This document shows positions 21,391 through 46,027 of a stretch of 64,000 nucleotides of DNA, in pieces. The position numbers were made by a program, and so were the translations under genes. Location of the stretch: contig CAYYLW010000002.1 in NCBI GenBank assembly GCA_964472465.1, forward strand, positions 11,361-75,360, written 5' to 3'. The stretch's first letter is position 1. Each line of letters opens with the position of its first letter. Source of the DNA: an uncultured Oscillospiraceae bacterium. Its GTDB lineage: Bacteria > Bacillota > Clostridia > Oscillospirales > Ruminococcaceae. Under the pieces are notes generated by a model. The model did no database searches, was not told the DNA's origin, and worked only from the letters and a program-made list of their open reading frames with translations.

Positions 21391-21478
21391 GTGTTCATTT
21401 GTTCTGCACGGTTTTGATGCATAAGAGACAAACTTGCTTTGAGCAGCATAATTCAACGGCAGAAGAAGGAGGATGAAG

Positions 21479-22561: not shown

Positions 22562-22565
22562 CGGA

Positions 22566-23486: not shown

Positions 23487-23496
23487 GGTGGCAGGG

Positions 23497-25026: not shown

Positions 25027-25189
25027 TGGGATTGTTTTTTGGTGGATTTACGAGGGCTTAGGCTCTTGCATTTTACTACGGCGTATGGTATACCATAAAA
25101 TAAGAAGTGGCGGTTGCACGTTCTCCTATTGAGGCAGTGCAATGCCCCTTATCACATCTGAAGGCTGAAAGATTCAAATTTGGATTTTT

Positions 25190-25237
25190 AGCTGCAGGTG
25201 AATCCGCATAATGCGGGTTTATCCTGCAGCTTTTTTG
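25190..25237 (+). terminator. intrinsic terminator inside the ATPase-SBP intergenic leader
   Basis: AGCTGCAGG (25190-25198) pairs with CCTGCAGCT (25223-25231), followed by TTTTTT. Confidence 0.55.
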
Positions 25238-25298
25238 TTGGGTAAAATGCCTGGGTAGGCAGAGCCGGGTATAAAAATAAAAAAGTAGGAGGTTCAAA

Positions 25299-26381
25299 AT
25301 GGGCAGAAAGAAATGGAAAGTATTGGCATTGCTGGTGGTGGTGATGATGCTGTTTACCGCATGTGGGGCTGGGGCAAGTTACACATCTACGGCAAATTCT
25401 GGGAATGGAGCCACTTCGTCGGCGGCGTCTGTGGCCTCCAGCGCCCCGGCTTCTGCTGCTGCCAGTGGCGAAAAAATGGACGCGAACGGTGCAAAGGTGG
25501 CACTGCTTACCTTAGGGGCGATTAACGACGGCGGCTGGAATGCCACGGTATACGAGGGCCTACAGGCCATGGAAGAATATGGCTTTGCCACCACGCTGGC
25601 AGAAAAAATTAACTTTGCCGAAATGGAGCAGGTTATCCGCACCTATGCGGACAACGACTACCAGATTATTGTGGGGCACGCACATAATTTTATGGATATT
25701 TTTACCCGCATCGCGCCAGAGTATCCAGACACTTTGTTCGTGTGTACCAACTCCCAAACCTCGCAAGACCCCAATGTAAGCAGTGTTACGGCCGATGACC
25801 TGGTACAGGGCTTTTTGGCTGGTTGCGCTGCGGGGCTGCTTACCGAAAGTAACAAAGTTGCCTACGTGTACGGCCAGGAATCTCCGGCGAATAACCTTTC
25901 TGCGCAGGGGTTTGAGCTAGGGGTGAAGCATGTGAACGAAGACGGCCAGCCAGAAATTGTGATTACCGGCAGCAATGCAGACCCGGTGCGTATGAAAGAG
26001 GCCACCACCACATTTATAAAAGAAGGTGGCGATGTGGTGTTTACCAGCGGAAATGCGGTGGGCCTTGGCACCATTGAGGCCTGCAAGGAAGCCGGTGTGA
26101 TGGTGGTGGGTAGCACCACAGACCAAAACCCTGTAGCACCCGAGGTGGTAGCCATTAGCGTGCTGAAGGACTACACTGCCGTGATGAAACATGTGGCGGA
26201 ATTGTACCTGGCGGGTGAGTTAAAAGGGTTTATAAATATGGGCATCAATGAGGGGGCCGTGTATTATAGCCCTTGGCATGAGTTTGAAGATACGGTGCCA
26301 GAAGAGGTAAAATCACAACTTGAGCAAATTCAAAAAGATGTAGCCAGCGGAACCATTGATGTGGCGGCCTTGGCAGCCTAA
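25299..26381 (+). CDS. BMP family ABC transporter substrate-binding lipoprotein
   Basis: Lipobox LFTACG, Ser/Ala linker, Bmp/PnrA/Med-like domain. SD AGGAGG upstream. Confidence 0.85.
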   Translation: MGRKKWKVLALLVVVMMLFTACGAGASYTSTANSGNGATSSAASVASSAPASAAASGEKMDANGAKVALLTLGAINDGGWNATVYEGLQAMEEYGFATTLAEKINFAEMEQVIRTYADNDYQIIVGHAHNFMDIFTRIAPEYPDTLFVCTNSQTSQDPNVSSVTADDLVQGFLAGCAAGLLTESNKVAYVYGQESPANNLSAQGFELGVKHVNEDGQPEIVITGSNADPVRMKEATTTFIKEGGDVVFTSGNAVGLGTIEACKEAGVMVVGSTTDQNPVAPEVVAISVLKDYTAVMKHVAELYLAGELKGFINMGINEGAVYYSPWHEFEDTVPEEVKSQLEQIQKDVASGTIDVAALAA

Positions 26382-26506
26382 CAAAAGCCAGATAGATTAG
26401 ACAAAGCAGCCTCTGGTAACCAGGCCGGAAGGCTTGAGGAAATGTTGTTGTTTTTGGTAGATAATGAAAAAATATTACGATAAAAAGAAAAATGAATAGG
26501 AGCTGA

Positions 26507-28246
26507 ATGAGCATGGAAAACCTGAGAAACACCCCGGAATTTGCAACCTTGAGAGCCAGATTTGACGCCATTTTAGGAAAGGGCCCCGCTGATTTGCTGA
26601 TTAAAAACATCCGCATTGTGGATGTTTACAGTGAGCGTGTAACCGAGGGTTCCATTCTGATAAAGGATGGCATTATCATGGCGCTGAACCCGCCAGAGGA
26701 TGAGGTGCGACCAAACGAAGTGCTGGATGGGCAGGGGCTGTATGTGGCCCCCGGCCTGGTGGATGCGCACTGTCACATCGATAGCCACCTGGTGACACCG
26801 GCAGCATTTTCGGAGTGCATTACCCCAAACGGTACCACCACACTTTTCTGCGAGATAGAGGATATTGTGGGAAGCGCCAAAAAAGAGGGCGTAAAGTGTG
26901 TGGAGGTGCTGTTTAAAGATTTGGAAAAGCTCCCCTATCGCATCTATCTGCAAGCGCCTGGCAAGAAGGTAAAATGGGATATTTGTCGCCAAATTTTGGA
27001 TATGGACATCACTGTGAACCAGGGTGAGTTCCCAGAACTGGACTATTTGGAAGCCAAGGATGAGGTGCTGGAGCAAATTCTTTATGCCAAGAAGATTGGC
27101 AAACCGATCCATAGCCATATTAAGTACCTGTATGAGAGCACCTATCCCGTGAATATGTTTGCCATGGTAAATACGTACAACACCCATAATATTTGGGATT
27201 ACAAGAGTTTGCAGGCAGCCATACAACTGGGCATACCTTCCATGCTGCGCGAGGGTGTGGGTGGGGTACTAAGCTGTATGGATGCCGCAGTGCCTGGGAT
27301 GATCAACGACCACCTACCCACAGATAACATCATGTTCTGCACGGATAACCTTACCGTAGACACCATATTTAAGCAGGGACATTTGAACCACAACCTAAAC
27401 CGTGCCATCAGCATGGGTATTTCTCCCATTCAGGCCCTCAAGATGGGTACGCTGAATGCGGCCCGCGCTTTCCACATGGAGCAGTATATTGGTTCTGTTG
27501 CCCCTGGCCGCTTTGCAGACCTCATCTTCCTAAAAGATTTGCAGACCATTGAGCCTGTGATGGTGATGAAGGGGGGCAAAATGGTGGCGAAGGAAGGCCG
27601 CTTGCTGGAGCTGCCCAAAATAGATTACTCCGATATCATCAGCAAGGCAAAACCAGGCCTGGCCAGCCTGAAGAAAGAAGATTTGGAAATCACTCCGCTG
27701 GAAATTTCCTCCGATGGTACCAAGGCAAAGGTGGTGTGCCTGTATATGGGCATGCCCGCTTACATGGAGCCCTACTGGATGGACTACAAAGATGGTCAAG
27801 TGGTCATTCCAAAAGGGATGAACCGCATGAGCATCATCCAGCGTTACCCAAAGGGCGAGAGAAAGATTACCAATGGCCTGGTGAGCCAGTATGAGCTGGA
27901 GCGTGGTGCCTTGGCATTCAATTACTCTTCCTTGGATCAACAGATTTGTGTGGTAGGTACCAAGGTAGAGGATATGTACGAGGCCGCCCTGGCCATGGAC
28001 AATTACCCCGGCGGCTACATCTCCTGGTTAAACGGGAAGGTAACCTCGGAAATGCCTGCCGAGATTTACAGCATGATTACCACCATGAGCGCCAGCGAGT
28101 TCAACGAATGTGCCAAACGCCTGAAAAAAGCGGGCGAGGAACTGGGCTACTTTGAGGAAAAGGCAATTTCCCCCTGGCAATTCCGTATGCAAATCATGTC
28201 CTGGATGTTTGACCGCCGCCGCTATGTGGGGATGGAGGAAGACTAA
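26507..28246 (+). CDS. adenine deaminase-like amidohydrolase
   Basis: 579 aa. N-terminal DLLIKNIRIVDV...GLVDAHCHIDSHL (HxH metal motif) and a length typical of the Ade family. Confidence 0.7.
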   Translation: MSMENLRNTPEFATLRARFDAILGKGPADLLIKNIRIVDVYSERVTEGSILIKDGIIMALNPPEDEVRPNEVLDGQGLYVAPGLVDAHCHIDSHLVTPAAFSECITPNGTTTLFCEIEDIVGSAKKEGVKCVEVLFKDLEKLPYRIYLQAPGKKVKWDICRQILDMDITVNQGEFPELDYLEAKDEVLEQILYAKKIGKPIHSHIKYLYESTYPVNMFAMVNTYNTHNIWDYKSLQAAIQLGIPSMLREGVGGVLSCMDAAVPGMINDHLPTDNIMFCTDNLTVDTIFKQGHLNHNLNRAISMGISPIQALKMGTLNAARAFHMEQYIGSVAPGRFADLIFLKDLQTIEPVMVMKGGKMVAKEGRLLELPKIDYSDIISKAKPGLASLKKEDLEITPLEISSDGTKAKVVCLYMGMPAYMEPYWMDYKDGQVVIPKGMNRMSIIQRYPKGERKITNGLVSQYELERGALAFNYSSLDQQICVVGTKVEDMYEAALAMDNYPGGYISWLNGKVTSEMPAEIYSMITTMSASEFNECAKRLKKAGEELGYFEEKAISPWQFRMQIMSWMFDRRRYVGMEED

Positions 28247-28721: not shown

Positions 28722-28775
28722 TTACCACCATATGTTCTGGAGGATGCCGGAGAGGAAAAAAATCATTGCGTTCAT
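28722..28775 (-). CDS. 17-codon sORF A: MNAMIFFLSGILQNIWW
   Basis: AAAGGAGG, 8 nt, ATG, 17 codons, TAA. Duplicated 147 bp upstream. Not in the ORF track because it is under 60 aa. Confidence 0.45.
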   Translation of the reverse strand: MNAMIFFLSGILQNIWW

Positions 28776-28992
28776 GAGTGTGGCCTCCTTTCGTGTGGGG
28801 TATGCTTTCAGTATAGCCATGGGCCGTAACCAAGCCGTAACCGGGGGCTGGTTTAATTTTTGGGGGGACTACCACCATATGTTCTGGAAGATGCCGGAGA
28901 GGAAAAAAATCATTGCGTTCATGTGTGTGGCCTCCTTTCGTGTGGGGTATGCTTTCAGTATAGCCGTGGGCTGTAACCAAGCCGTAACCGGG
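28723..28992. repeat. tandem direct repeat, 2 x ~123 bp, 147-bp period
   Basis: Copies at 28723-28845 and 28870-28992 align with about 4 mismatches by eye. Each carries an SD, an sORF and a TATACT box. Confidence 0.9.
28869..28922 (-). CDS. 17-codon sORF B: MNAMIFFLSGIFQNIWW
   Basis: AAAGGAGG, 8 nt, ATG, 17 codons, TAG. One residue differs from sORF A. Confidence 0.45.
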   Translation of the reverse strand: MNAMIFFLSGIFQNIWW

Positions 28993-29157: not shown

Positions 29158-29409
29158 ATGGGTAGAAACAAAAAAATTAAATTTGAAAACTGAGATAAAT
29201 ATATTGCGCTTGGTTTAAACATTTCTTATTACCGAAAAAGAAAAGGGATGACCCAAGAGCAATTGGCTGAGGTGGCAGAACTGAGCCGCGGGTATTTGGG
29301 CGTTATTGAAGCCCCAGGGACGGTGACCAATATTTCCCTAGAAACCTTGTTTGGTTTGGCGGGTGCCTTGGAAGTAGACCCCGCACAGCTATTGGAAATA
29401 CGCAAGTAG
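29158..29409 (+). pseudogene. short XRE-family HTH gene interrupted by an in-frame TGA
   Basis: Reads MGRNKKIKFEN-TGA(29191-29193)-DKYIALGLNISYYRKRKGMTQEQLAEVAELSRGYLGVIEAPGTVTNISLETLFGLAGALEVDPAQLLEIRK*. The HTH_XRE pattern spans the stop codon. Confidence 0.55.
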
Positions 29410-29454
29410 GGTAGAGAAAAGGCCTTGGTGTAGAGGGGCAGAATGAAATAGAAA

Positions 29455-29496
29455 AATAGCCCACCGGTGTGGTTTGGACACACCGATGGGCTATTT
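29455..29496. terminator. bidirectional hairpin terminator between XRE and radical SAM genes
   Basis: AAATAGCCCACCGGTGTG...CACACCGATGGGCTATTT. Confidence 0.55.
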
Positions 29497-29533: not shown

Positions 29534-30871
29534 TTATCGGCGGTAGAGTGCCTGCCCGTTTTGGCCGCTTAGGTTGAAGGCGCAAAAGGGAACAAGCTCG
29601 CCCTCTGGCGAAACCACGTGAACGTGGCAGTGCTGCAAACGTTTGGTGTCCAAGGTCCACGCGTCTTGAAACATCATGCCGGAAATGGCAAGCCGAGATT
29701 GTTGTTGCAGGGCGAGAAACCCTTCCAGAGAATCCTCTTTCGGCGGCCCCTCTTGGCTGCAAGCCCCCACGGGAGACCATTTTTGCGCCACCGCCTGCCG
29801 GGCCCTATCGCTGCTGGGGCGCGGGGGGGCCTTGCCACAGCAGGGGTGTGTGGCGGTTTGTACCCGCCGCCATCTTCCCCCGGCGAGGGTATAATCCGCA
29901 TGAAAAGAACAAAGTGGGTGCTCTGCGCCGCCGGGCATAAAATCGGCCGCCTGCACCTGGCCGCCGCTCTGCTGTTCCAGCGCCCAAAGCAGCCCCGGCA
30001 GTGTGAGCCTCTCCTCGCGTTCCCAGGCCGCGCCATACCGGCCAAAATAGCTGATTGGCTGGAAGTGCACCCCCCGTACGGTGGGGCTATGCAGCGCGGC
30101 ATATTCCAGTATGCTCCACACATCTTGTAGGTTGCAGCCGGGTTTCACCGTGGGCACCAAAACCACACCCAGCCCCGCCCGGCCACAGTTTTCCACGGCT
30201 TTTTTTTTCACGTTTAGCAAAGGCCTGCCGCGCAGTTCTTGGTAGGGGGCTTCGCGTGTTGAATCAAATTGCAGGAACACGGTTTGCAAACCCGCTTTTT
30301 TTAGGCTGTGCGCAAAGGCTTCTTCTTCGGCCAGGCGCAGGCCATTTGTGTTGATTTGAAAGAACGGGAAGCCTTTGCGGCGGCCCGCCTCAACAATTTC
30401 TGGCAGGTCTTCCCTCAGGCTGGGTTCACCGCCAGAAAGCTGGATGTTGAAGGGCCCGCCCTTTTCCAGCAACAGATCAAACCAGGCCAAAATCGTTTCC
30501 AAGCTGGGGTCTGGCGGGGCGGACGCGCTGCCGCCGGAATTGGCAAAACAAACGGGGCAGGCCATGTTGCAGCGCGCCGTCACCTCCAGCAGCACACAAC
30601 AACTGGCCTGCTGATGGTTTTCACACAGCCCACAGTCATAGGGGCACCCGTTTTTAGCGGCGCGGTGGGCCCCTATTGGCTTTTGTGGCAGGGGCTCTTT
30701 GTACCGGGCCAGGAAGCTGGCCTCACCCTGCCAGACCCGGGTTTCAAAAAAGCCATGCTCCTCGCAGCTTTTTTGCAGTAAAATCTCCTCTTGCTGCAAC
30801 ACATACCGTGCGTCTATCTTTTTCAGGCACACGGGGCAAACGCTTTGGGCCGTACACAAGAATTTAGCCAT
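29534..30871 (-). CDS. radical SAM protein with an N-terminal Cys-rich (Zn-ribbon-like) domain
   Basis: CxxxCxxC motif CNMACPVC. Upstream Cys motifs CPVC and CPYDCGLC. C-terminal ISGMMFQDAWTLD...PFCAFN block, as in the MJ0619/Tes-like radical SAM family. Confidence 0.8.
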   Translation of the reverse strand: MAKFLCTAQSVCPVCLKKIDARYVLQQEEILLQKSCEEHGFFETRVWQGEASFLARYKEPLPQKPIGAHRAAKNGCPYDCGLCENHQQASCCVLLEVTARCNMACPVCFANSGGSASAPPDPSLETILAWFDLLLEKGGPFNIQLSGGEPSLREDLPEIVEAGRRKGFPFFQINTNGLRLAEEEAFAHSLKKAGLQTVFLQFDSTREAPYQELRGRPLLNVKKKAVENCGRAGLGVVLVPTVKPGCNLQDVWSILEYAALHSPTVRGVHFQPISYFGRYGAAWEREERLTLPGLLWALEQQSGGQVQAADFMPGGAEHPLCSFHADYTLAGGRWRRVQTATHPCCGKAPPRPSSDRARQAVAQKWSPVGACSQEGPPKEDSLEGFLALQQQSRLAISGMMFQDAWTLDTKRLQHCHVHVVSPEGELVPFCAFNLSGQNGQALYRR

Positions 30872-31283
30872 ACAGGCCCACTCCCTGGGCTTCTAAAATA
30901 TCCAGCATTTTTTCAAATGTGGCCACCATCAACTTGGGGCAAAACCCTGCCATGCCGCTGGGCGCACCCGCCAGCAATTCCCGGCACTCCAGGCTGCCGT
31001 ACTCCTGTGTAAACCACGCCACCAGCTCCCGCGCCGGCGCTTGATAGCCTGCTGGCTCCGGCTGGGTAGCGCCGCGGGGAAAATAGGTGCCAATGGCGGC
31101 CACAGCGCCCGTTAGGGTGCCGCAGGTGCGCTGGGCGCACATGCCCCCGCCCAGTGCGCCCAGCGCACGCACCGCAAAGGGGTGGTCTAGCCCGCGCATG
31201 TCCAGCGAAAGCTGCATCATCACCTGGCTACAGTGCAGGCCATTTTGTAGTTGCTCTTTTACCAGCGCTTCAAGGCTTTGCAT
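30864..31283 (-). CDS. C_GCAxxG_C_C family putative redox protein
   Basis: HCSQVMM...GGGMCAQRTCGTLTGAV...ECRELL...FCPKL matches the C-GCAxxG-C-C cysteine pattern. Overlaps the radical SAM start by 8 nt. Confidence 0.75.
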   Translation of the reverse strand: MQSLEALVKEQLQNGLHCSQVMMQLSLDMRGLDHPFAVRALGALGGGMCAQRTCGTLTGAVAAIGTYFPRGATQPEPAGYQAPARELVAWFTQEYGSLECRELLAGAPSGMAGFCPKLMVATFEKMLDILEAQGVGLYG

Positions 31284-31306
31284 GCAAACCCTCCTTTGGC
31301 CTTTTT

Positions 31307-32584
31307 CTATTGGGCATCCGCCGCCTCATAGCCGCACCAGTCCAGCAGTGTGCAAGCCAAAACCTGGCAGGAATGCAGGTAGTCCTCCAGCCCAACCCAT
31401 TCGTTGTTGGCGTGCATTTGCTCGGTTTTGCCCGGGCCAAAAATGACGGTGGGCGTGTGGCCGTACTGGTTTAAAAAACGGATATCGGCAGCGCCTTGGC
31501 GGCCACTGATGCTGGGCGCCTGCCCCAAAACGGTTTCGTAGTTGTGGCATAGGGTTTGCACAATGGGGCTATCCACGGGGATTTCAGAGGGTTCTGCAAA
31601 ATAGCCGGTGTACACCACCTCCGGCGGGTTTTCGCGCAGCCAGGGTTCTTCCTCTGCGGCGCGGCGCGCAACAAAGGCCGCAAAGGCCTGTTTTACAGCG
31701 GCGGAGTCCTCGCCCGGCAAGGTGGCCAAAGAGCCTTTCAGTAAGGCGCTATCGGGAAAGGCGCTGTTGTAGCTTCCGCTGCAAAACTGGCCAATCATGC
31801 AGGGAACCGAGCCAAAGACGTCGGGATAGAGTGGGTGGGACACCTGCTCGATGCGCAGGGCCTCAAATTCGGAAACGATTTGTGTGACCAGCCACCCCAG
31901 CCGGATGCCGCTTACGCCCAGGTCTCGCCGCTGTATTCCCGCGGCCTTGCCCTTCACCCGGATATCAAACCAGATGCGCCCAATGGAGCCGGGCTGCACC
32001 TGCATGCTGGAGGTTTCGCAGCAAATGCCGGCGTCCGCCCGGTAGCCCCGCTGTACACAGGCCAGGGTTCCGTTCCCGGTCAATTCCTCGTCCATCACAT
32101 ACTCGGCCAGCACATCCCCTTTAGGCTGTAGGCCGCAGGCTTTTACCGCCTTCATGGCCATGGTAAAAGCGGCCACACCGCTTTTCATGTCGGAGGTGCC
32201 GCGGCCATACATCTTGCCGTCCGCAATATCGGCAGACCAGGGCCCATGCTCCCAGTTTTCGGCCGCCCCCTCCGGAATCACGTCCACATGCCCATTGAAC
32301 AGCAGGCTGCGCCCACCGCCCCGGCCGGCCCATTTCGCCACCAGGTTGGGTCGCCCCTCATATGGTAAGGATTCTTTTACATACCCCGGGTGCTGGCGCA
32401 GCTCTTGCAGAGAGGGCACGAAACAATCCACTTCCAGCCCCATCTCCTGTAGTTGCTGCTGCAAAAAAGCCTGCACGGGCCCTTCGTCTCCGGTCACACT
32501 CGGTATTTGAATCAATTGCCGTAAAAAGTCCACCAATTCCTCGCGGTGTTCTTCCATCCAAGCACATACCCGCTCTTTGCTCAT
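31307..32584 (-). CDS. M20 family metallopeptidase / ArgE-DapE-type deacylase
   Basis: Blocks LLFNGHVDVIP, GRGTSDMKSG and DEELTGNG. Confidence 0.8.
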   Translation of the reverse strand: MSKERVCAWMEEHREELVDFLRQLIQIPSVTGDEGPVQAFLQQQLQEMGLEVDCFVPSLQELRQHPGYVKESLPYEGRPNLVAKWAGRGGGRSLLFNGHVDVIPEGAAENWEHGPWSADIADGKMYGRGTSDMKSGVAAFTMAMKAVKACGLQPKGDVLAEYVMDEELTGNGTLACVQRGYRADAGICCETSSMQVQPGSIGRIWFDIRVKGKAAGIQRRDLGVSGIRLGWLVTQIVSEFEALRIEQVSHPLYPDVFGSVPCMIGQFCSGSYNSAFPDSALLKGSLATLPGEDSAAVKQAFAAFVARRAAEEEPWLRENPPEVVYTGYFAEPSEIPVDSPIVQTLCHNYETVLGQAPSISGRQGAADIRFLNQYGHTPTVIFGPGKTEQMHANNEWVGLEDYLHSCQVLACTLLDWCGYEAADAQ

Positions 32585-32823
32585 AAAAGGCTCCTCTTTT
32601 CAGTATTATTGTGAAAAACATCTCTTACCCGGAATAGTAGCACAAGCGGGCCCAAAGAAGAATAGAAGAATACAGTTTTTGCTTCACTTTTAGTACATTG
32701 GTACAATTGTCTTTTATGAGGCTACAAAAATAACCGCTATTTTTCTATACAAATGTCAAATTGTTCCCGCTGCCATTTGGTGTTATCATACAAACACAAG
32801 TTTGCCAAACCCAGGAGGCAGCC

Positions 32824-34503
32824 ATGAGTATTGAATTGCGGGACGTAATGAAAATATTTCCATTTTCGATGGCCCGGTTGATTGCAGGCGAAGCGGGGCT
32901 CTCCCGCCCGGTGATTTCGGCCAACATCCAGGAGGTGCCCGATGTAGACCGCTGGATGAAGGGGGGAGAGATTGTGTTCACGGCCGGATACGCCTTCCAA
33001 AGCGCGGAAAACGGCTGCAAGATGATGGAAAAATTGAACCAGGTGGGAATTGCGGCCCTGGCCATAAAGCCGGGGCAGTACCTGTCTATCATTCCAGATG
33101 CGATGATAGAATGCGCGAATAGCCTGGGGCTACCCCTGTTTGAACTGCCGCAGGATTTGCCTTATATGGATTGCATTATCGCCATATTTGAGCAAATTAC
33201 ACAAAAGCAACTGTCCTTGCTAAAGCGGGTGGATAGGGTACACGCCATGCTTACCCAAACCATTCTGAACAAAGAAGGGCTGGACGGAATTTGCGATATT
33301 TTGTATGAGGTGACGGGCAACCCGGTGTTCATCACAGATTCCCACGGGGCCGTGTTTGCCGATAAGACCCACGCGGAGGATGAGGCAGATACCAACAACT
33401 ATAGAGAGATGATTTTGGGGCAACTGGAGCATTATTTCTCCCGCAGTGAGGAGAAGCATTTGCGGGAAAACCAGTGCAATATCCTTTCGCCAGGGCCCGG
33501 CCTGCGCCTGCTTATTGTGCCCATTGCGGTGCAGGCAAAGCGGATTGGCTATCTGATTTTAGACATGGTGCACAACGAGATGCTGGATGTGGACATGATA
33601 GCGTTTGAGCAGGCCAGCAGCATGGTGGCTGTGGAATTTTTGAACGAAAAGGCCCTGTGGCAACAGGAGCAAAAAGTACGTGAACAGCTTTTGGAAGATT
33701 TGCTGATGAAGCACTATGGAGATGAAAAACTGGTGATTCAACGCGGTAGATACCTAGGCTTTGACATGACAGGGCGCTACAGCCTGTTTGCCATTGATGC
33801 GGATTCGTTTGAAGAAAAACTGAAAAACGAAATGATGGACCTGGGAGAGGAGCGAGTGCAGCAAATCAAAAGCCAGGTGCAGCAGAAAATACGCGCCGGC
33901 ATGGAAAAATACCACCGCCCCAGCCTTGTGTTAGATAGAAGCATGGGGGCCATTGGGATGATTAGCATCCGCAAAGATTCGGATGTGCAGGAATGTGCCC
34001 TTGTGATTGGCGAGATTTTGGAGGAGCTGAACAAGCTGAACACCAGCCTTTCTTTTTCGGCCGGGATAGGAAGGATTAAACAGGGGATTCGGCATGTGGA
34101 AAAAGGTAGCCGGGAGGCCCTGCTGGCCATGCGTGCCGGGCGGAATTTGCAGGTGGAAAATGAAACCGGGCGGGTGCATACCTTTGATGAGGTGGGTTGC
34201 CTGAGTTTTTTGTGTGAGCTGACTGGCTCCACCGCCATGCAAGAATTTTACGAGGAATACCTGGGTTGCCTGCAACAGTATGACCAGGAAAATAACGCCG
34301 AACTGATTAAAACATTGAAATGCTATTTCGCCTGCAACAAAAATTTGCGTAAAACGGCGGAAATGTTGTTTGTCCATAAAAACTCCGTCATTTACCGGCT
34401 GGGGAAAATTGAAACCCTGATGGGCAAAAAGCTAGACCACCATCAAACTTCTTTTGATTTGCAACTGTGCCTAAAACTTCAAAGCATCCTGCGGGATGTG
34501 TAA
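32824..34503 (+). CDS. PucR family transcriptional regulator
   Basis: N-terminal PucR-like sensor domain and C-terminal HTH LRKTAEMLFVHKNSVIYRLGKIE. ATG at 32824 follows AGGAGG. Confidence 0.85.
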   Translation: MSIELRDVMKIFPFSMARLIAGEAGLSRPVISANIQEVPDVDRWMKGGEIVFTAGYAFQSAENGCKMMEKLNQVGIAALAIKPGQYLSIIPDAMIECANSLGLPLFELPQDLPYMDCIIAIFEQITQKQLSLLKRVDRVHAMLTQTILNKEGLDGICDILYEVTGNPVFITDSHGAVFADKTHAEDEADTNNYREMILGQLEHYFSRSEEKHLRENQCNILSPGPGLRLLIVPIAVQAKRIGYLILDMVHNEMLDVDMIAFEQASSMVAVEFLNEKALWQQEQKVREQLLEDLLMKHYGDEKLVIQRGRYLGFDMTGRYSLFAIDADSFEEKLKNEMMDLGEERVQQIKSQVQQKIRAGMEKYHRPSLVLDRSMGAIGMISIRKDSDVQECALVIGEILEELNKLNTSLSFSAGIGRIKQGIRHVEKGSREALLAMRAGRNLQVENETGRVHTFDEVGCLSFLCELTGSTAMQEFYEEYLGCLQQYDQENNAELIKTLKCYFACNKNLRKTAEMLFVHKNSVIYRLGKIETLMGKKLDHHQTSFDLQLCLKLQSILRDV

Positions 34504-34871
34504 GTATACTAAAATAACTGGAAGATAATTGGTTTTTTAGTACAATGACACCAAAGGTTGGCTGTGCTATGATGTGGCTGGAATACCAGCGGCAAAACCA
34601 GCAATGAACCCAATAGGAGGCGGCCCAGCGGTGGCCGCTTTCCTTTCAGCCACTATCATTAAGAAACAGAACAACACCCAAAACCCCTGTTTTCCATCCG
34701 GTAGGGAGGTTGGTTAAATTAGAGTTTGGCATTTTTGCCTGGTTCTAGTACAGAAAACGTTTCACGGCCCGTGCCCGGTACACTGCGCAGGAATACGAAT
34801 TCTCTTGAATACCCGCAGCCCAGTTAAACCATTGGTAGAAGAAACCAATTGAACACAAGGGAGGAAGAGAT

Positions 34872-35999
34872 ATGGTAAAAGCAGCAGTTTTTCTAGGAAA
34901 GGAAAAAATGGAGGTGCGTGAATTTCCGAAGCCAGAGGTGGCCCCGGATCACGCCCTGCTGAAAGTGGCTGCCTGCGGTGTTTGCGGTACAGACCCGCAC
35001 ATCTACATGGGGCATCTCAACGTGCCCGCACCGCTGATTATTGGGCATGAGTTTTCGGGCATAGTGGAGGAGTTTGGAAAAGAGTATTTGATGCAGGACA
35101 TGTATGGCCAGCCCTTGAAAGCGGGCGACCGCGTGGCCTTGGGCACCACGATGAACTGTGGCAAATGCTACTACTGCCGCTTTACCCCACACCGTAACAA
35201 CATGTGCGCCAATTGTGATATTTACGGCATCACCATGGGCATTGACCGTGCGCCCTCCCTATGGGGCGGCTATTCGGAGTATGTGTATCTGCTTCCGGGC
35301 TCCTGGATGTTCAAAATTCCCGATGATATGAGTTTTGAAGTGGCCGCCTTGTCCGACCCTTGCGCCTGCGCCACCCGCACGGTAGAGCGTGCCTTCACGC
35401 CGGGTATGCCAGGGTCTGCGGATAGCTTTGGGGTGAACAGCAGCGTGGTGGTGCAGGGGCTTGGCAGCATTGGGCTTTTGGCGGCCGCCTACGCAAAAGC
35501 CGCCGGGGCCTATCCGGTTATCGGCATTGAGGGAAACCCCACACGGATATCGTACGCCAAGAAATTTGGCTGTGACATTGTGATTGATATGAACGAATAC
35601 CCCACGGCAGAAGAACGGGTGGCCAAGGTGAAAGAGTTGACCCGGGGCCTGGGTGCCGATGTTGTGCTGGAGATGGCCGGTGTTCCCGCCGCCTTCGCGG
35701 AATCCATGCAACTGGTGCGCTGTGGCGGCAAGCTGGTGGAGTTTGGGCACTTTTCCAACGTGGGCACCACCCCCCTCAACCCCCAAGATATCGTGAACAA
35801 GGATTTGGATATTCACGGCGTGTTTGCCTATCCCAACACCCAAATTGGCGTCGCGCTGAATTTCTTGCACAATTTTGCGGATCGATTCCCCTTCCACGAG
35901 CTCATCACACACCGTTTCAATGTACAGGATACCGAAAAAGCCATTTTGGCCGGGCGAGACAAAACCTGTGTGAAGGCAATGATTGTGAACCCGGTATAA
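34872..35999 (+). CDS. zinc-dependent (MDR) alcohol dehydrogenase
   Basis: Blocks CGVCGTDPH, GHEFSG, structural-Zn Cys cluster CGKCYYC...C, and GLGSIGL Rossmann. Confidence 0.8.
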   Translation: MVKAAVFLGKEKMEVREFPKPEVAPDHALLKVAACGVCGTDPHIYMGHLNVPAPLIIGHEFSGIVEEFGKEYLMQDMYGQPLKAGDRVALGTTMNCGKCYYCRFTPHRNNMCANCDIYGITMGIDRAPSLWGGYSEYVYLLPGSWMFKIPDDMSFEVAALSDPCACATRTVERAFTPGMPGSADSFGVNSSVVVQGLGSIGLLAAAYAKAAGAYPVIGIEGNPTRISYAKKFGCDIVIDMNEYPTAEERVAKVKELTRGLGADVVLEMAGVPAAFAESMQLVRCGGKLVEFGHFSNVGTTPLNPQDIVNKDLDIHGVFAYPNTQIGVALNFLHNFADRFPFHELITHRFNVQDTEKAILAGRDKTCVKAMIVNPV

Positions 36000-36079: not shown

Positions 36080-37549
36080 ATGAGTAGCAGTACTTTATTC
36101 GTAATTTTGATGGTTATCTATTTGGTTGGCACCGTTATATTTGGCGTTGTAAAGGCGAAAAAGCAAGATGAGGGTACCACGAAGGACTGGTTTGTGGGTG
36201 GTGGCAAGGTGTTTTGGGTTGCGGTGGGCTTTACCATTGCGGCCGCCTGGCTGGATATGGCCACCATCTTTTTAAACTCTGGCGAAGGTTATGTGGTGGG
36301 CATCTCGGCATTTTGGTACTTGGCCGGGGCAGAAATGGTGGCCTTCCTCATTATGACCTTCTTCTTTGCCAAACCCATTCGCAATACCGGCATGATTTCC
36401 CAGGGTGAGATGATGGAAAAACGCTTTACCCCGGCCATCCGCCCCTTTTATGCCATCATCTGGGTGTTTTCCCTCTGTGGCTACGCGGCACTCAGTTTCC
36501 TGGTCTTTAATGAGTTCTTGCAGTTCCTGTTTGGGGTAAACCAGTTTGTTTCGGCCGCTATCTGCTTGGTGGTGGTGTTGGCCTTCCAACTATTTGGCGG
36601 TTTTGCCGCCACCGTTTACGCCGATTATATCCAGGGCGCTTTAATCATCGTGGGTTCCATTGTACTGGGCATATTTGCGGTAAAGGCTGCCGGCGGTATG
36701 GGCAACATCGCCGCTGCCGTTCCGGCCGAATTTCTGAACCTCTTTGGTATTGGCGGCGGGGAAATATTGGCCCTTACGGTGCCCCTGATGCTGGCCTTTG
36801 TGATTGAGCCCACCCTTTGGATGCGGGTGGTTTCCTCCCGCAGCTTGCGCAGCGCACAAAAAGCCAACCTGTTTGCGTTTGTTGTGTACATCCCCGTGTG
36901 CATAGGCACCCTGCTTACCGGCCTGGCCGCCTATGTGCTGTACCCCAACTGGAATCAATCGCTGAATATGATTGCCGTGGATATGGCGGAAAACCTGTTC
37001 CCGGCCCCTGTTACCGCCATCATTTTTGTGGCCATTATTGCGGCGCTTATCTCCTCTTTCAACGCCTTCATGAGCGCCGCCAACATGAACCTCAGCTACG
37101 ATTTTATCCCCTCTATCTACGCGGCCATCAAGAAAAAGCCCTTCCCCGAAAACAAATACCGTTTTGTTAGCCGGATTGGCATGGTGGCCATCGCCTTCCT
37201 GGGCACCTTTATCGCCCTGTGGCTGCCTTCACTGGTGGAGATTCTGTCTTTCTCGGGCGCCTTGGCCGCTTCGGGCCTGTTCCTGCCGGTGTTCTGCATG
37301 TTCTTTAGCAAAAAGGTGAACACCACCGGCGCCATGGCCAGCTTCGTGGTGGGCTCGGCCTCCCAGCTCATCCTGTTTATTATAGACAAAGTCTCCACCA
37401 CGGGCGGGCTGGGCTTCGACGCATTCTTTGTCTCCTTCCCGCTGGCGTTTGTGGCCTTGCTTGTGGGCACCTACCTGGGTCGGCACAAACCACCCACGGC
37501 GGAACAACTGGCCCCCTTCGATATGAGCCGTTCTTCCGAGGCGAAATAA
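36080..37549 (+). CDS. sodium:solute symporter (SSS) family transporter
   Basis: 489 aa, about 13 TM segments, SSF-like sequence. Confidence 0.8.
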   Translation: MSSSTLFVILMVIYLVGTVIFGVVKAKKQDEGTTKDWFVGGGKVFWVAVGFTIAAAWLDMATIFLNSGEGYVVGISAFWYLAGAEMVAFLIMTFFFAKPIRNTGMISQGEMMEKRFTPAIRPFYAIIWVFSLCGYAALSFLVFNEFLQFLFGVNQFVSAAICLVVVLAFQLFGGFAATVYADYIQGALIIVGSIVLGIFAVKAAGGMGNIAAAVPAEFLNLFGIGGGEILALTVPLMLAFVIEPTLWMRVVSSRSLRSAQKANLFAFVVYIPVCIGTLLTGLAAYVLYPNWNQSLNMIAVDMAENLFPAPVTAIIFVAIIAALISSFNAFMSAANMNLSYDFIPSIYAAIKKKPFPENKYRFVSRIGMVAIAFLGTFIALWLPSLVEILSFSGALAASGLFLPVFCMFFSKKVNTTGAMASFVVGSASQLILFIIDKVSTTGGLGFDAFFVSFPLAFVALLVGTYLGRHKPPTAEQLAPFDMSRSSEAK

Positions 37550-40623: not shown

Positions 40624-42915
40624 GTGGAAGAAAACCAGCCAGAGATGAGGGTGTTTGAGCAAAAACACAATTGCGTGCAGGGAGAAGCGCCTTTTTGCAC
40701 GGCGGCCTGCCCGCTTCACGTGGATGTGCGCCTGATGATGGCACATATTCAAAAAGAAAACTGGGAGGCCGCCCTTGAGCTGTACCGCAGTGCGGTGTTG
40801 CTTCCGGGCATCGTGTCCCGCCTGTGTACGAAGCCTTGCCGCGGTGCTTGTTTACGGGCCAAAATGGGTGATGGGCTGGAGATAGGCTTGCTGGAACGCT
40901 GCCTGGTGGAAACGGTTCCCCTTCCCCCCAAAAACCGGTTTATTCGCCCCAAAAATCAATCGGCCATCGTGGTGGGCGCAGGGCTTGCGGGGATAGCCTG
41001 TGCCCTGACGCTGGCGCAAAAAGGGTTTTTGGTTACCCTGCATGCGAACGGAGCCTACCCCGGCGGTGCCGCCGTGATGCATCCCTTGCTGGATACGACG
41101 GCCGCCATTACAGAGATAAAAACCAAACTGGAAAGCTGCGGCGTAAGCCTGCGGCTTTCCAGCCCTGTGGACGCCCCAGAAAATCTGCCGGCCGATGTGG
41201 TGCTGTTGGCGGAGGAAGAGGACGCCGCGGTGCCCGGCGGTTTGCTGGCGGGGGCTGGCGTTCCGCTGGTGCAGAACAAAGCCGACCCCCACATTTTTTA
41301 TGCCACTTACCTCCCCACGCCAGAGCGTGCCCTGGCCCAGGGAAAACAGGCGGCCAGGGCCATGGAACAGTATCTGGGGGGGCTTACTTTTCCGGTGCTG
41401 GAAGCCGCTGAACCCAAAACACGCCTATACACCCCCCTGGCCCAGGGTTTGGCGCCGCTACCGGCCACCGCCCCCGGCGAAACCGGCGCTTATACCCGCC
41501 AGCAGGCTCAAGAGGAGGCCCGGCGCTGCCCGCTTTGTGAATGCAAAGCCTGCCTGCCGCACTGTTTGTTTTTGCAGGAGGGCAAACAGCACCCCAAGCA
41601 ATATATTGTGGAAGCGCAGCAAAGCCTACGCACCCTGAAGCTTCTGCAAAGCAAGCTAAAGGCACGCCGCACCAACGCCTGCAACCTCTGTGGCCTTTGC
41701 CGGGAGTATTGCCCCGGCGGCGTGGACATGAGCGAGGTCTATCTGTACAGCCGCCGCATCATGCACAGGCAGGGGGAACTGCCGGAGGCATTCCATGCAT
41801 TTTGGCTGGAGGACATGGCGTTTTCCCAATCGGAAGAAGCCTTTCTGTGCAAGGCGGAGCCCGGGTTTGAGACGGTAGAGTATTTGTTCTTTCCCGGCTG
41901 CCAACTGGGGGGTGTGCAGCCAAGCCAGCTACAGCAGGTGTATGCGTACCTCAGGGAGCATCTTGGGGGCGGGGTGGGTATGCACCTGGGCTGTTGCGGC
42001 GCGCCCGCCGAATGGGCCGGTTATGAGGAACAGACACAGGAACTGCTGGAACATTTCCGCGCCCTGCACGCCAAACTGGGAAACCCGGTGGTGATACTGG
42101 CCTGCCCAAGCTGTGAGAAACTGTTTGCCAAATATCACGCGGACATACGGCGGATGCCGCTGTGGCAGGTGTTTTGCGAACAGGGCCTGCCCCAGGGCGC
42201 CCGGCCTGCGCAGCAGCAAGAGGTGGCCGTGTTCGACCCTTGCGCCAGCCGGTATAGCCCCCCCACGCAGGGCTATGCCCGCCGTTTGCTAAAGCAGATG
42301 GGGTACGCGGTGCAAGAGCTTCCCCACCATGGCCGCTATGCCCAATGCTGTGGGCACGGGGGGCTTATTTCGGCCTCCAACCCCCAAATGGCAAAGCGGG
42401 TGGCGGCCGATAGGGTGGCGGCCAGCAGCCTGCCGTATGTAAGCTATTGCACCAATTGCTGCGAAATTTTCCGGCGGGAGGGAAAAACAGCGTGGCATTT
42501 GCTGGATTTGTTGTTTGGGGCGGATGCCCAAAACGCGGCGGGGAGCCTGGCGCTCAGCTACTCGGCCCGGCGCGATAACCGCAGGAAACTCAAACAGACC
42601 CTGCTGAACACCTATTGGGGGGAGGCGTTTTCACTGGAAAAACCACAGGAATGGCTGGGCCTTGCGCTGGAGATACCCGGTGCTTTGCGCACGAAAATGG
42701 AAGAGCATTTGATTTTAGAAGAGAATATCCAGCAGGCCATTTACCGCGCGGAAGCCAACCAAAGCAAACTGGCCCAGGGGGAACAGTTCATCTGCCACTT
42801 ACAGATAGGGGTGGTTACCTACTGGGTTTATTACCACCCCCTGCCAGGCGGGCGGTTTGCCGTGGATAATGCGTATTGCCACCGTATGCAAATTGTAGAG
42901 GAGGCACCCAAATGA
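40624..42915 (+). CDS. fused GltD-like FAD/NAD(P) oxidoreductase, 4Fe-4S and two CCG (HdrD/GlpC-like) domains
   Basis: Cys-rich N-terminus (CTAACPLH, CTKPCRGAC), GxGxxG (VVGAGLAGIA), CNLCGLCREYCP, and CCG motifs LGCCGAP and AQCCGHGG. Confidence 0.75.
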   Translation: MEENQPEMRVFEQKHNCVQGEAPFCTAACPLHVDVRLMMAHIQKENWEAALELYRSAVLLPGIVSRLCTKPCRGACLRAKMGDGLEIGLLERCLVETVPLPPKNRFIRPKNQSAIVVGAGLAGIACALTLAQKGFLVTLHANGAYPGGAAVMHPLLDTTAAITEIKTKLESCGVSLRLSSPVDAPENLPADVVLLAEEEDAAVPGGLLAGAGVPLVQNKADPHIFYATYLPTPERALAQGKQAARAMEQYLGGLTFPVLEAAEPKTRLYTPLAQGLAPLPATAPGETGAYTRQQAQEEARRCPLCECKACLPHCLFLQEGKQHPKQYIVEAQQSLRTLKLLQSKLKARRTNACNLCGLCREYCPGGVDMSEVYLYSRRIMHRQGELPEAFHAFWLEDMAFSQSEEAFLCKAEPGFETVEYLFFPGCQLGGVQPSQLQQVYAYLREHLGGGVGMHLGCCGAPAEWAGYEEQTQELLEHFRALHAKLGNPVVILACPSCEKLFAKYHADIRRMPLWQVFCEQGLPQGARPAQQQEVAVFDPCASRYSPPTQGYARRLLKQMGYAVQELPHHGRYAQCCGHGGLISASNPQMAKRVAADRVAASSLPYVSYCTNCCEIFRREGKTAWHLLDLLFGADAQNAAGSLALSYSARRDNRRKLKQTLLNTYWGEAFSLEKPQEWLGLALEIPGALRTKMEEHLILEENIQQAIYRAEANQSKLAQGEQFICHLQIGVVTYWVYYHPLPGGRFAVDNAYCHRMQIVEEAPK

Positions 42916-43124: not shown

Positions 43125-43814
43125 TCACACTTTGGCCCAAACGCCATAGGCATAGCCAAGGCCGCTTTTTGGGCCCCCAGGTTCCATGCCCATAGCCTGC
43201 CAAACCGGGGAAGACGAGCCATACTCCCACAGCAGTTTGGCCGTAAAAGCGCGCAGATGGGGCGTGGCATCCTCCCAAACCAAAGGGGAGAAGCCCGCTT
43301 TTTTTGCCAGTGTGGCCCATTGTTCCCGGCTTTTGGCCCAGATGGGGGAGGCGGCGCTATCCTGGGGGGAGTTGCCGGGGGAAACGGGCTTATAAAAATC
43401 GGTGACAATCCATTTCCCGCCGGGTTTTAGAACACGGTGTATTTCTTTCCATACCCTATAGGGGTCTTCAAACAGGCAGCAGGTACACTCGCATATCGCG
43501 GCGTCAAAATAGGCGTCACCCCAGGGGATGCTTTCCGCCCTGCCCTCGCGCAGGTCAAGCTGGGGGTAACGCTGTTTTGCTTTTTCCAGCAAAGCGGCGG
43601 CACTGTCCAGCCCCGCCACAAGGTAGCCCTGGGCGCCCAGGGCACCGGCCGTTTCGCCCAGGCCGCAGCCCACATCCAGCAGGCTCTGGCCTTTTTCCAG
43701 CCCGGCCGCCTGTACCGCCTGGTTTGTCAAAGCAAGGCCGCCGGGCCGAAGCGTTCGGCCCAGGCAGGCCTGGAAGGCGTCCTCCTCGTAGATGTTGTGG
43801 GTAAGCAAAGCCAT
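43125..43814 (-). CDS. class I SAM-dependent methyltransferase
   Basis: SAM motif I LLDVGCGLGE and post-I LVAGLD. ATG at 43814 follows AAGGGGG. The longer ORF-track N-terminus (to 44048) is unlikely. Confidence 0.8.
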   Translation of the reverse strand: MALLTHNIYEEDAFQACLGRTLRPGGLALTNQAVQAAGLEKGQSLLDVGCGLGETAGALGAQGYLVAGLDSAAALLEKAKQRYPQLDLREGRAESIPWGDAYFDAAICECTCCLFEDPYRVWKEIHRVLKPGGKWIVTDFYKPVSPGNSPQDSAASPIWAKSREQWATLAKKAGFSPLVWEDATPHLRAFTAKLLWEYGSSSPVWQAMGMEPGGPKSGLGYAYGVWAKV

Positions 43815-43925
43815 GACCCCCTTTTTGGCGCTGTGGTTTGGGTGGTGATGGATGGTGCCAGCAAGGGCTAAGCCAGCGTGTTTTTGCGCCGCAGCTGGCC
43901 CCATTTTTACCGTAGGAGGGGCGCT

Positions 43926-45182
43926 ATGAGCCCAGTGAAAAAGCAGGACGGGTGTGATTCTTTTTGGATGGAACCGTGGCTGGACAGCCTTTGCCCGGCC
44001 AGTTCCCCCGTGAAGCTGGCCCGGTGGCAGGAGGAAAAAGCGAAACAAGCCATCCTACGCGCCAAAGCGTGTAGCCCTTTTTACCAGCAGCACCTCGCCA
44101 AAGTTTCGGCCTTGGATATGGCGCGGCCCAACTGGCTGGCCCAAATTCCGTTTACGGATGCGGCCACCATTTCAAAACAAGGGCCGGGGATGCTGTGTGT
44201 GCCGGCCCATGAGGTAGCCCGCATTCGCAGCATTCCCACATCGGGCAGCACGGGCCCGGCCAAGCGTATTTTTTTCACCGAGGGAGACCTGGACAGGACG
44301 GCCCGGTTTTTTGACGCCGGAATGCGGCATATGGTGCAGCCGGGGCAAGAGGTTGCGGTGATGATGTCCAGCCCGCAAGAGGGAAGCGTTGCCGATTTGC
44401 TGGAAAAAGGGCTGGAGCGTTTTGGGGCCAAAGCGCGATTCTGCGGCCAGGTGCACAATGCCGAGCAGGCGGCCCAGGAGGCTTTGGGGGCGGCCTGCTT
44501 GGTGGGTTTGCCCTCGGAGATGCTATACCTTTGCCGCAAGGCCCCCCATCTGCGCCCCAAAACCGTGCTCCTCAGTGCCGATTATGTCTCCCCAGCCGTG
44601 GTGCAAGCCTTGCAGCAGGCCTGGGGTTGCCAAGTGTTTTCGCATTATGGGCTCACCGAGACGGGCTATGGTTTGGCCGTGCAGTGCCCCTGCCGGGAGG
44701 GCCACCACCTGCGGGCGGCGGAATTTTTGGTGGAAATTATCTGCCCCAAAACCGGGGCGGTGTTGCCCGTAGGGCAGGAGGGGGAACTGGTGCTTACCAG
44801 TCTGTGCAATGAGGCGCTGCCCCTGCTGCGCTACCGCACCGGAGACATCACCTCGCTGCTGGCCCAGCCCTGCCCCTGTGGCAGTGTGCACCCCCGCCTG
44901 GGGCCGGTGCGGGGCCGGTATACCCACCTGCAAGAGGCGGTGAACATCTATAGGCTGGATGACCTGCTCTTTTCCCTACCGGGTATGGTGGGCTATGAGG
45001 CAAGCTGGGAGAGGGAAACCCTTTGCCTGCTGGTGGAGGGCCCGGTTCTCCCGGAGCAGGAATTGCGAGACCGGCTGGGTGTTCCGCTGAAGGTGGAGTA
45101 CGGCCCGGTCAAGCTGGGCGGCCGCGAAAAGCGGCGGGTGGGCGGCGCGTTTTATGGCGGTGAACCGGCAAAACACGGATGA
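43926..45182 (+). CDS. PaaK/F390-synthetase-like AMP-dependent ligase
   Basis: Blocks TSGSTGPAKRIFF (AMP-binding P-loop), YGLTETG and YRTGD. ATG at 43926 follows AGGAGGGG. Confidence 0.8.
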   Translation: MSPVKKQDGCDSFWMEPWLDSLCPASSPVKLARWQEEKAKQAILRAKACSPFYQQHLAKVSALDMARPNWLAQIPFTDAATISKQGPGMLCVPAHEVARIRSIPTSGSTGPAKRIFFTEGDLDRTARFFDAGMRHMVQPGQEVAVMMSSPQEGSVADLLEKGLERFGAKARFCGQVHNAEQAAQEALGAACLVGLPSEMLYLCRKAPHLRPKTVLLSADYVSPAVVQALQQAWGCQVFSHYGLTETGYGLAVQCPCREGHHLRAAEFLVEIICPKTGAVLPVGQEGELVLTSLCNEALPLLRYRTGDITSLLAQPCPCGSVHPRLGPVRGRYTHLQEAVNIYRLDDLLFSLPGMVGYEASWERETLCLLVEGPVLPEQELRDRLGVPLKVEYGPVKLGGREKRRVGGAFYGGEPAKHG

Positions 45183-45984: not shown

Positions 45985-46027
45985 GGGGAACTGTCCTTTC
46001 CTCGGGATAAAAAGCAGGGCAGGGCCC

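Follow-up and report, generated by a model that had tools for sequence, protein, structure and literature searches.

Known relatives of the TrsS locus

In the synthesis of archaeal lipids, the radical S-adenosylmethionine (SAM) enzyme GDGT-MAS (MJ0619) links one inert sp3 carbon to another; it is the sole close solved relative of the protein family TrsS. Here, a TrsS gene and its surroundings are described from a stretch of 64,000 nucleotides of an uncultured Oscillospiraceae bacterium (contig CAYYLW010000002.1 of assembly GCA_964472465.1), the whole of which is called the window. The gene is the last of three on the minus strand, following a gene for a C-GCAxxG-C-C protein (CGCA) and one for an M20 deacylase. 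For GDGT-MAS, four metal sites have been reported by Lloyd et al. (PMC9433317). These are a rubredoxin-type site C9X2C12X20C33X2H36, an N-terminal [4Fe-4S] cluster bound by C73, C77, C80 and a histidine, the CX3CX2C radical SAM cluster, and a C-terminal [4Fe-4S] cluster with a labile methionine. The old annotation of MJ0619 as a pterin methylase was not corroborated by the same study, and a pterin methylase reading of TrsS was rejected here as well.

On the bacterial side, the families in question are found in the DVU_1551-DVU_1559-type cluster of Desulfovibrio vulgaris Hildenborough, in which DVU_1559 is Aor (PMC10920352). In Clostridium ljungdahlii, tandem four-gene sets consisting of a MOP-type aldehyde oxidoreductase (MOP), an FAD/CCG oxidoreductase, a 4-Cys protein and a C_GCAxxG_C_C protein have been described, and a set of these four families is upregulated on syngas or H2/CO2 (PMC5640608). 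A 2026 review (PMC13188914) has TrsS in a table of selenoprotein families, with Haft & Tolstoy 2025 given as the source. The family name speaks of a '(seleno)protein', so that selenocysteine is optional, and the window protein represents the Cys form. The family and its neighborhood are already covered by the NCBI models NF045645, NF045646 and NF045663-NF045669. The instance in the window is therefore an ordinary one, and the interest lies in the unexplained system. This gene set is widespread in anaerobes (Desulfovibrio, Clostridia, Sporomusa, Pelotomaculum and human-gut contigs) and couples an aldehyde oxidoreductase with solved close relatives to a relative of the lipid-joining enzyme of archaea.

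The explanation that accounts best for the locus, and which we consider probable, is that a Cys-type TrsS belongs to a seven-gene MOP set that is split in the window, with the M20 gene standing outside the set.

TrsS and its metal sites

In the first-pass annotation of this DNA, which was made from the letters alone, the radical SAM protein was called MJ0619/Tes-like and was left without a family. Profile placement assigns it to NF045646, the TrsS family named by NCBIfam, with 585.2 bits against a cutoff of 490, and residues 8-444 cover profile positions 3-441 of 441. The Tes model NF045702 yields 333.6 bits, which is below its cutoff of 450, and is matched at profile positions 2-339 of 486 only. 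Judged by these profiles, the window protein is a Cys-type TrsS and belongs to a family distinct from archaeal Tes/GDGT-MAS. The occurrence of the family as found here is almost wholly bacterial, together with metagenomic contigs. The translation contains all of the Cys-rich and other motifs quoted earlier (CPVC, CPYDCGLC, CNMACPVC, FQDAWTLD and PFCAFN). Also the reported lack of SPASM and RRE domains was borne out, since no such model of Pfam or NCBIfam matches TrsS; SPASM families score 30-50 bits, on the radical SAM core only. For comparison, 102 loci anchored on TrsS were collected (14 from GTDB genomes, 8 around the closest database relatives and 80 from metagenomes) and searched with profiles built from the window proteins. 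An in-frame TGA, the selenocysteine codon, is absent from the window open reading frame (ORF) and from the TrsS genes of all 102 loci.

The likeness to MJ0619 holds on the level of sequence as well as of the predicted fold. The best sequence match in the PDB is GDGT-MAS (7TOL, E=1.5e-81), and an AF2 model of TrsS (pLDDT 87.7) superimposes on 7TOM with a TM of 0.82, MoaA being next at 0.47. Within 33 homologs the residues C12x2C15x20C36x2H39, C76/C80/C83 plus H86, C101x3C105x2C108 and M399/C415/C430 are invariant. They align with the ligands of 7TOL, and all four metal sites of GDGT-MAS are thus predicted to be kept in TrsS.

Between two aligned blocks, GDGT-MAS carries a segment of about 110 residues, whereas TrsS has about 68 (residues 323-390). 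Compared with GDGT-MAS, the TrsS segment is reduced by about 40 residues and its sequence is unrelated, and the pLDDT falls below 50 at residues 342-347 and 371-374. We take the replaced segment to be the region of the second lipid pocket of GDGT-MAS, most of which would then be absent, and the substrate of TrsS is therefore probably no membrane diether lipid. Thus, TrsS shares the fold and the four metal sites with GDGT-MAS/Tes and yet stays below the Tes equivalog cutoff. As opposed to GDGT-MAS/Tes, its genomic partners are molybdoenzyme-related and not lipid genes. In line with this, the Tes loci of archaea and acidobacteria (L015-L080) carry none of the MOP-set partners.

The conserved MOP gene set

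In most of the 102 loci, the genes follow the order MOP, dicluster oxidoreductase (Diclust), DUF7479, methyltransferase, CGCA, TrsS and ligase on one strand. Thirty loci extend 9 kb or more to either side of TrsS; 29 of these have MOP, Diclust, DUF7479, CGCA and the ligase together, and all 30 have the methyltransferase. MOP is found in 43 of the 45 TrsS loci that extend at least 8 kb upstream. An accessory system split between the radical SAM gene and the region at 40.6-45.2 kb, as had been suggested for this DNA, is therefore well founded. Elsewhere the same set is usually contiguous and on the same strand.

All seven core families of the D. vulgaris-type cluster occur in the window as well. 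The window MOP matches NF045668 with 1240.8 bits (cutoff 1100) and, as an ortholog of the solved aldehyde oxidoreductases, aligns over its full length with 1DGJ and 1SIJ/1VLB of the PDB (E ~1e-276). Diclust, the N-terminus of which resembles NfnI/GltD, scores 725 bits with NF045663 (cutoff 530), and the DUF7479 protein matches PF24292 (E=4.4e-23) as well as NF045645 (76.2 bits, cutoff 60). For the methyltransferase, 181.9 bits were obtained with NF045667 (cutoff 155) over residues 99-301 of a 307-aa ORF, and for the adenylating enzyme 370 bits with NF045666 (cutoff 300). Different from the D. vulgaris-type cluster, however, the window set is non-contiguous, lies in three transcription units or blocks on two strands, and is embedded with genes for PucR, an alcohol dehydrogenase (ADH), a sodium:solute symporter (SSS) and M20.

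The CGCA protein matches PF09719 with 77.7 bits (cutoff 27) and has four invariant cysteines, C18, C54, C100 and C115. Its pairing with the radical SAM gene had been regarded as unusual, but a C-GCAxxG-C-C partner next to TrsS is the norm for the family. Of the 90 TrsS loci whose upstream sequence reaches 600 nt or more, 79 have CGCA; it abuts TrsS in 63 of them (gap -10 to +62 nt), with overlapping genes in 37 of these 63. In the GTDB loci it is directly upstream of TrsS in 14 of 14. Several of the 90 loci without direct contact carry XdhC-type and MocA-type genes between CGCA and TrsS. The co-occurrence of the radical SAM gene with CGCA and mop genes, for which a check had been proposed, is hence conserved in other genomes. 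The neighbors of the window gene are those of its family, and so is the overlap of its start with the stop of the CGCA gene. Unlike in typical TrsS loci, it is displaced from the remaining cluster and lies behind the M20 gene. The four families of C. ljungdahlii are the same, which supports an assignment of CGCA to the MOP redox module, but in the window CGCA is apart from MOP, Diclust and DUF7479 and is translationally coupled to TrsS. Structurally, the model of CGCA (pLDDT 93.8) is all-helical with seven helices. It has no neighbor in the PDB, neither by structure (best Foldseek E=1.1, TM at most 0.31) nor by sequence. The C-GCAxxG-C-C family thus appears to be without a solved representative, and the fold offers no clue to the function.

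Further genes accompany the set in other genomes. The commonest extra neighbors are an XdhC-family 'aldehyde oxidoreductase maturation factor' (NF045664), found in 26 loci and in 10 of them within the seven-gene span, and a DVU_1551/MocA-like nucleotidyltransferase, found in 38 loci and within the span in 16. MbdU-like and MoeA-like proteins come next. Several members of the set occur as fusions: TrsS with the DVU_1556 methyltransferase (P0021 and P0045), an MbdU-like/DUF5714 Cys-rich metal-binding domain with TrsS (P0057 and Pelotomaculum schinkii L173, 17054-19138), and the methyltransferase with the ligase (L082 11425-13248, L086 1110-2909 and L088 8170-10008). These fusions and the interleaved molybdenum cofactor (Moco) maturation genes narrow the functional hypotheses. 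A conserved transporter is missing from the core set, and the catabolic surroundings vary by lineage. PucR, ADH and the symporter are limited to the lineage of the window, and LysR-type or sigma-54-type regulators are found in other lineages. In P. schinkii, which carries a complete cluster, a small Nitro_FeMo-Co (NifX/NafY-like) protein is encoded between MOP and Diclust (L173 12970-13362); a cluster of ORFs of about 130 aa in four other loci is possibly related to it.

Rearrangement of the set in the window

The window contains all seven core genes, split between 29.5-31.3 kb and 37.7-45.2 kb, and is a complete but rearranged copy of the MOP/TrsS gene set. On the minus strand lie M20, CGCA and TrsS; divergent from these run PucR, ADH, SSS, MOP, Diclust and DUF7479, followed by the methyltransferase on the minus and the ligase on the plus strand. 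How this arrangement came about is suggested by the closest relatives. Locus L082 has a contiguous layout, with PucR on one strand, a remnant of M20, then ADH, SSS, MOP, Diclust, DUF7479, CGCA and TrsS on the other strand, and finally an oppositely oriented fusion of methyltransferase and ligase. The M20 remnant, located beside PucR, comprises residues 1-90 and 385-424 only. The loci L083-L085, of which L083 is the closest relative, show the layout of the window without M20, CGCA and TrsS being divergent from PucR, ADH, SSS and MOP. The identity to the window is 57% for TrsS and 89% for MOP in L082, and 62% for TrsS, 92% for MOP and 80% for PucR in L083-L085. Apart from the remnant in L082, no gene similar to the window M20 was found in other TrsS loci; in L086 an M20/M28-family gene lies about 7.6 kb downstream, which is not similar to it.

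Taken together, the remnant beside PucR in L082 and the layout of L083-L085 without M20 indicate that M20 is an old neighbor of PucR in the lineage of the window and that CGCA and TrsS were relocated beside it. M20 is a lineage-specific neighbor and no member of the conserved set. The protein itself reaches 265.9 bits with TIGR01910 (cutoff 217.6) but stays below the cutoff of the closest equivalog, PRK06915 (379 bits against 428).

A second irregularity concerns the degree of conservation. ADH, the symporter and MOP are 77-92% identical on protein level to L082/L083, but TrsS, CGCA and Diclust only 53-62%. Compared with Desulfovibrio, MOP (about 47%) and TrsS (about 44%) of the window have diverged to a comparable extent. 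Since both diverge alike at long range but unequally from L082/L083, it looks as if the ADH-SSS-MOP block had been exchanged recently and not as if the rates differed. The GC content is 0.59 at 30-32 kb and 0.50-0.52 in the flanks. The rearranged locus can be seen as a natural 'dissection' of the set: away from MOP, CGCA stays translationally coupled to TrsS, and the methyltransferase and the ligase are free to lie at other places.

Possible function of the set and rival explanations

Since TrsS keeps the rubredoxin-type, the N-terminal, the radical SAM and the C-terminal Met site, it would probably take a hydrogen from an unactivated carbon and couple this carbon (C-C or C-S) via the C-terminal cluster. 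TrsS would act together with the methyltransferase and the adenylating enzyme, which are found in fusion with it or with one another. It is possible, and is put forward here tentatively as the preferred explanation, that the three enzymes produce or attach a modification, of a cofactor type or of a protein, for the MOP/Diclust redox module. CGCA and the DVU_1557 protein would then have redox or carrier functions based on thiols or Fe-S. The system would be layered, with Diclust and probably DUF7479 and CGCA as the redox partner layer of MOP, and TrsS, the methyltransferase and the ligase as an optional outer layer. By analogy only, the tungsten cofactor oxidoreductase radical SAM maturase (TIGR04317) provides a precedent for a maturation function, as its name assigns a radical SAM gene to the maturation of pterin-dependent oxidoreductases. 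This maturase is of the SPASM type, and with 41.9 bits against a cutoff of 380 TrsS is no member of it. More specifically, TrsS with its partners and the Cys-rich carriers (CGCA, DVU_1557 and MbdU-like) may use chemistry of the GDGT-MAS type, in which a substrate carbon radical is captured on the sulfide of an auxiliary cluster. The product would be an undescribed modification, either of the Mo-pterin cofactor or of MOP/Diclust, or else a new small redox cofactor, a proposal that we regard as rather doubtful in this detail. If it holds, this would represent a new class of molybdoenzyme maturation.

Several observations weigh against these conclusions, both on the gene set and on its function. 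The solved MOP structures of D. gigas reportedly contain the ordinary molybdopterin cytosine dinucleotide (MCD) cofactor. CGCA matches NF045669, the DVU_1555 family, over its full length but with 97.1 bits just short of the cutoff of 103. In contrast to the D. vulgaris-type cluster, no XdhC or DVU_1551/MocA homolog was found in the 64 kb of the window (tblastn, 1e-3). The counts given above were ascertained via TrsS and include near-duplicate contigs. Of five isolate loci anchored on MOP instead, only that of P. schinkii has the full set. Syntrophotalea acetylenica and copy 2 of Formimonas have MOP alone, copy 1 of Formimonas has MOP and Diclust, and the Acetobacterium woodii locus has MOP, Diclust and DUF7479 only. 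Because MOP-anchored loci are often without TrsS, MOP-type enzymes cannot universally require it, except if the genomes concerned encode it at another place. Finally, the literature found on TrsS, the DVU genes and the GCAxxG family amounted to the entry in the selenoprotein table (PMC13188914) and the note on C. ljungdahlii (PMC5640608).

The frequent occurrence of MOP without TrsS, which is itself nearly always near MOP, would also fit an optional downstream pathway. Here, the ligase, the methyltransferase and TrsS would act on the carboxylate product of MOP by formation of an acyl-AMP or acyl-CoA, O- or C-methylation and radical C-C coupling, and in the lineage of the window the aldehyde would come from the ADH and an imported substrate. 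The PaaK-like nature of the ligase (127 bits to PaaK), the weak similarity of the methyltransferase to BioC and fatty-acid O-methyltransferases, and the position of ADH and symporter next to MOP in this lineage speak for such a pathway. Nevertheless, it is unlikely, although it deserves to be taken seriously, because the core set contains neither a conserved transporter nor CoA-processing enzymes, its catabolic flanks change from lineage to lineage, Moco maturation genes are interleaved in the set and fusions to a Cys-rich metal-binding domain exist. The first-pass annotation had seen M20, CGCA and the radical SAM gene as one operon, and they could constitute a dedicated three-enzyme pathway under PucR. 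The tight spacing, the Shine-Dalgarno sequences and the lack of a predicted terminator between the genes would agree with this, as would a divergent PucR-M20 pair upstream of MOP and Diclust in Formimonas. However, such a functional unit is improbable in view of the absence of M20 from L083-L085, which otherwise have the same layout, its reduction to a remnant in L082 and the lack of a similar gene in the other TrsS loci. The juxtaposition is thus a local one, and the Formimonas proteins are not orthologous.

Two further explanations concern the radical SAM protein alone. As GDGT-MAS is its best match in sequence and structure and all metal sites are conserved, TrsS might be a bacterial synthase of membrane-spanning lipids of the Tes type. 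This is very improbable considering the score below the Tes cutoff, the missing profile part 340-486 and the short segment of about 68 instead of about 110 residues, which is modeled partly with low confidence. Furthermore, the consistent partners are MOP-cluster genes and not lipid genes, and the Tes loci are without these partners. Least credible of all is a function as maturase of a peptide that is made on ribosomes and modified post-translationally (RiPP), directed at two 17-aa peptides ending in WW that are encoded about 0.6 kb away behind strong ribosome-binding sites. This long-shot link, raised in the first-pass annotation, has to be given up: a SPASM or RRE match is missing, a terminator and a convergent gene stand between, and the small ORF was found in none of 173 related loci.

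Features and regulation of the locus

The coordinates of the genes and elements are collected in Table 1. The arrangement read from the letters was confirmed in every respect, namely three tightly packed minus-strand genes with a gap of 23 nt between M20 and CGCA (31284-31306), an overlap of 8 nt between CGCA and TrsS (30864-30871, ATGGCTAA) and a divergent PucR gene. A Shine-Dalgarno sequence AAAGGAGG precedes the CGCA gene and GGGAG the radical SAM gene, and no terminator was predicted between the three genes. Pfam and NCBIfam identify Peptidase_M20 with an ArgE/DapE family, C_GCAxxG_C_C, and Radical_SAM with Zn_ribbon_HMPTM. An Rfam search of the entire window at gathering thresholds gave no match.

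Table 1. Genes and elements of the TrsS locus and the split MOP set; positions refer to the window.
Feature	Position	Strand	Basis
Palindromic (bidirectional) intrinsic terminator 3' of TrsS	29454..29496	.	18-pair perfect stem, 9 GC pairs, T-runs both sides
TrsS-family radical SAM protein, Cys form, 445 aa	29534..30871	-	NF045646
DVU_1555-type C-GCAxxG-C-C protein (CGCA), 139 aa	30864..31283	-	PF09719
M20 ArgE/DapE-family deacylase, 425 aa	31307..32584	-	TIGR01910
Candidate operator TTTTAGTACATTGGTACAA, M20-PucR intergenic region	32686..32704	+	L083 conservation
PucR-family regulator	32825..34503 (longest ORF from 32761)	+	Pfam PucR, GGDEF_2, HTH_30
Zn-dependent alcohol dehydrogenase (ADH), lineage-specific context	34872..35999	+	88-92% identical in L082, L083
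Sodium:solute symporter (SSS), lineage-specific context	36080..37549	+	77-89% identical in L082, L083
MOP-type Mo-MCD aldehyde oxidoreductase, 950 aa	37683..40535 (longest ORF from 37578)	+	NF045668, Shine-Dalgarno sequence at start
NAD(P)/FAD-FeS-CCG oxidoreductase (Diclust, 'dicluster'), probably DVU_1558-type	40624..42915	+	NF045663
DVU_1557-family 4-Cys redox protein (DUF7479), 64 aa	42912..43106	+	PF24292, NF045645
DVU_1556-family SAM methyltransferase	43125..43814	-	NF045667; probable start at Met79 of 307-aa ORF 43125-44048
DVU_1553-family PaaK-like adenylating enzyme (ligase)	43926..45182 (longest ORF from 43878)	+	NF045666; probable start behind GGAGG

The divergent arrangement of PucR recurs in the closest relatives. 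With its likely start, an ATG behind AGGAGG, the PucR protein is 559 aa long, as is its ortholog in L083, which is 80% identical and likewise divergent from CGCA and TrsS. In the spacer between M20 and PucR, in which a sigma-70 scan revealed no convincing promoter, lies the direct repeat GTACA-TTG-GTACA of TTTTAGTACATTGGTACAA. At the same place, the CGCA-PucR spacer of L083 contains TTTTGGTACATTGGTACAA; this conservation, which is the single argument in its favor, hints weakly at a candidate PucR operator. A related sequence TTTTAGTACAATGACAC is found at 34535-34552, overlapping the -35 region of the site upstream of ADH that most resembles a promoter; the two intergenic regions share a 10-mer. 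About 0.17 occurrences of such a common 10-mer are expected by chance (an estimate), so that this is not significant alone.

Further upstream in the window, at 21473-28246, a nucleoside ABC transporter of the PnrA/Bmp type (two permeases, ATPase and binding protein) and an adenine-deaminase-like amidohydrolase (TIGR01178, 214 bits, below cutoff) are encoded. The transporter and the amidohydrolase fit a PucR-type regulon for nitrogen compounds around the cluster. In Candidatus Formimonas warabiya (CP017634, L172, 1-15173) a divergent PucR-M20 pair is located upstream of an ABC transporter, an M24 peptidase, MttB, a lyase, MOP and Diclust. Orthology of this pair to that of the window was rejected, PucR being 26% identical and M20 giving no hit at 1e-6.

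Downstream of TrsS, beyond the terminator, a convergent ORF of 53 aa (29248-29409) carries an HTH_3 (XRE-type) domain. Its match begins at profile position 10, and it may be a truncated remnant. This gene and the bidirectional terminator separate TrsS from the small ORFs, as had been stated before. The latter encode the hydrophobic 17-aa sequence MNAMIFFLSGI(L/F)QNIWW in two copies on the minus strand (28722-28775 and 28869-28922), each behind a AAAGGAGG ribosome-binding site with an AT-rich region upstream on the same strand. They lie inside a 123-nt repeat unit (28723-28845 and 28870-28992) with a spacing of 147 nt and 97% identity. The product may be a small membrane peptide, a toxin or a leader.

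Beyond the ligase, an ORF of 526 aa (45731-47311) without family match and of low-complexity composition is probably spurious, and an ORF on the opposite strand (45235-45984) looks by eye like a secreted, sortase-like protein.

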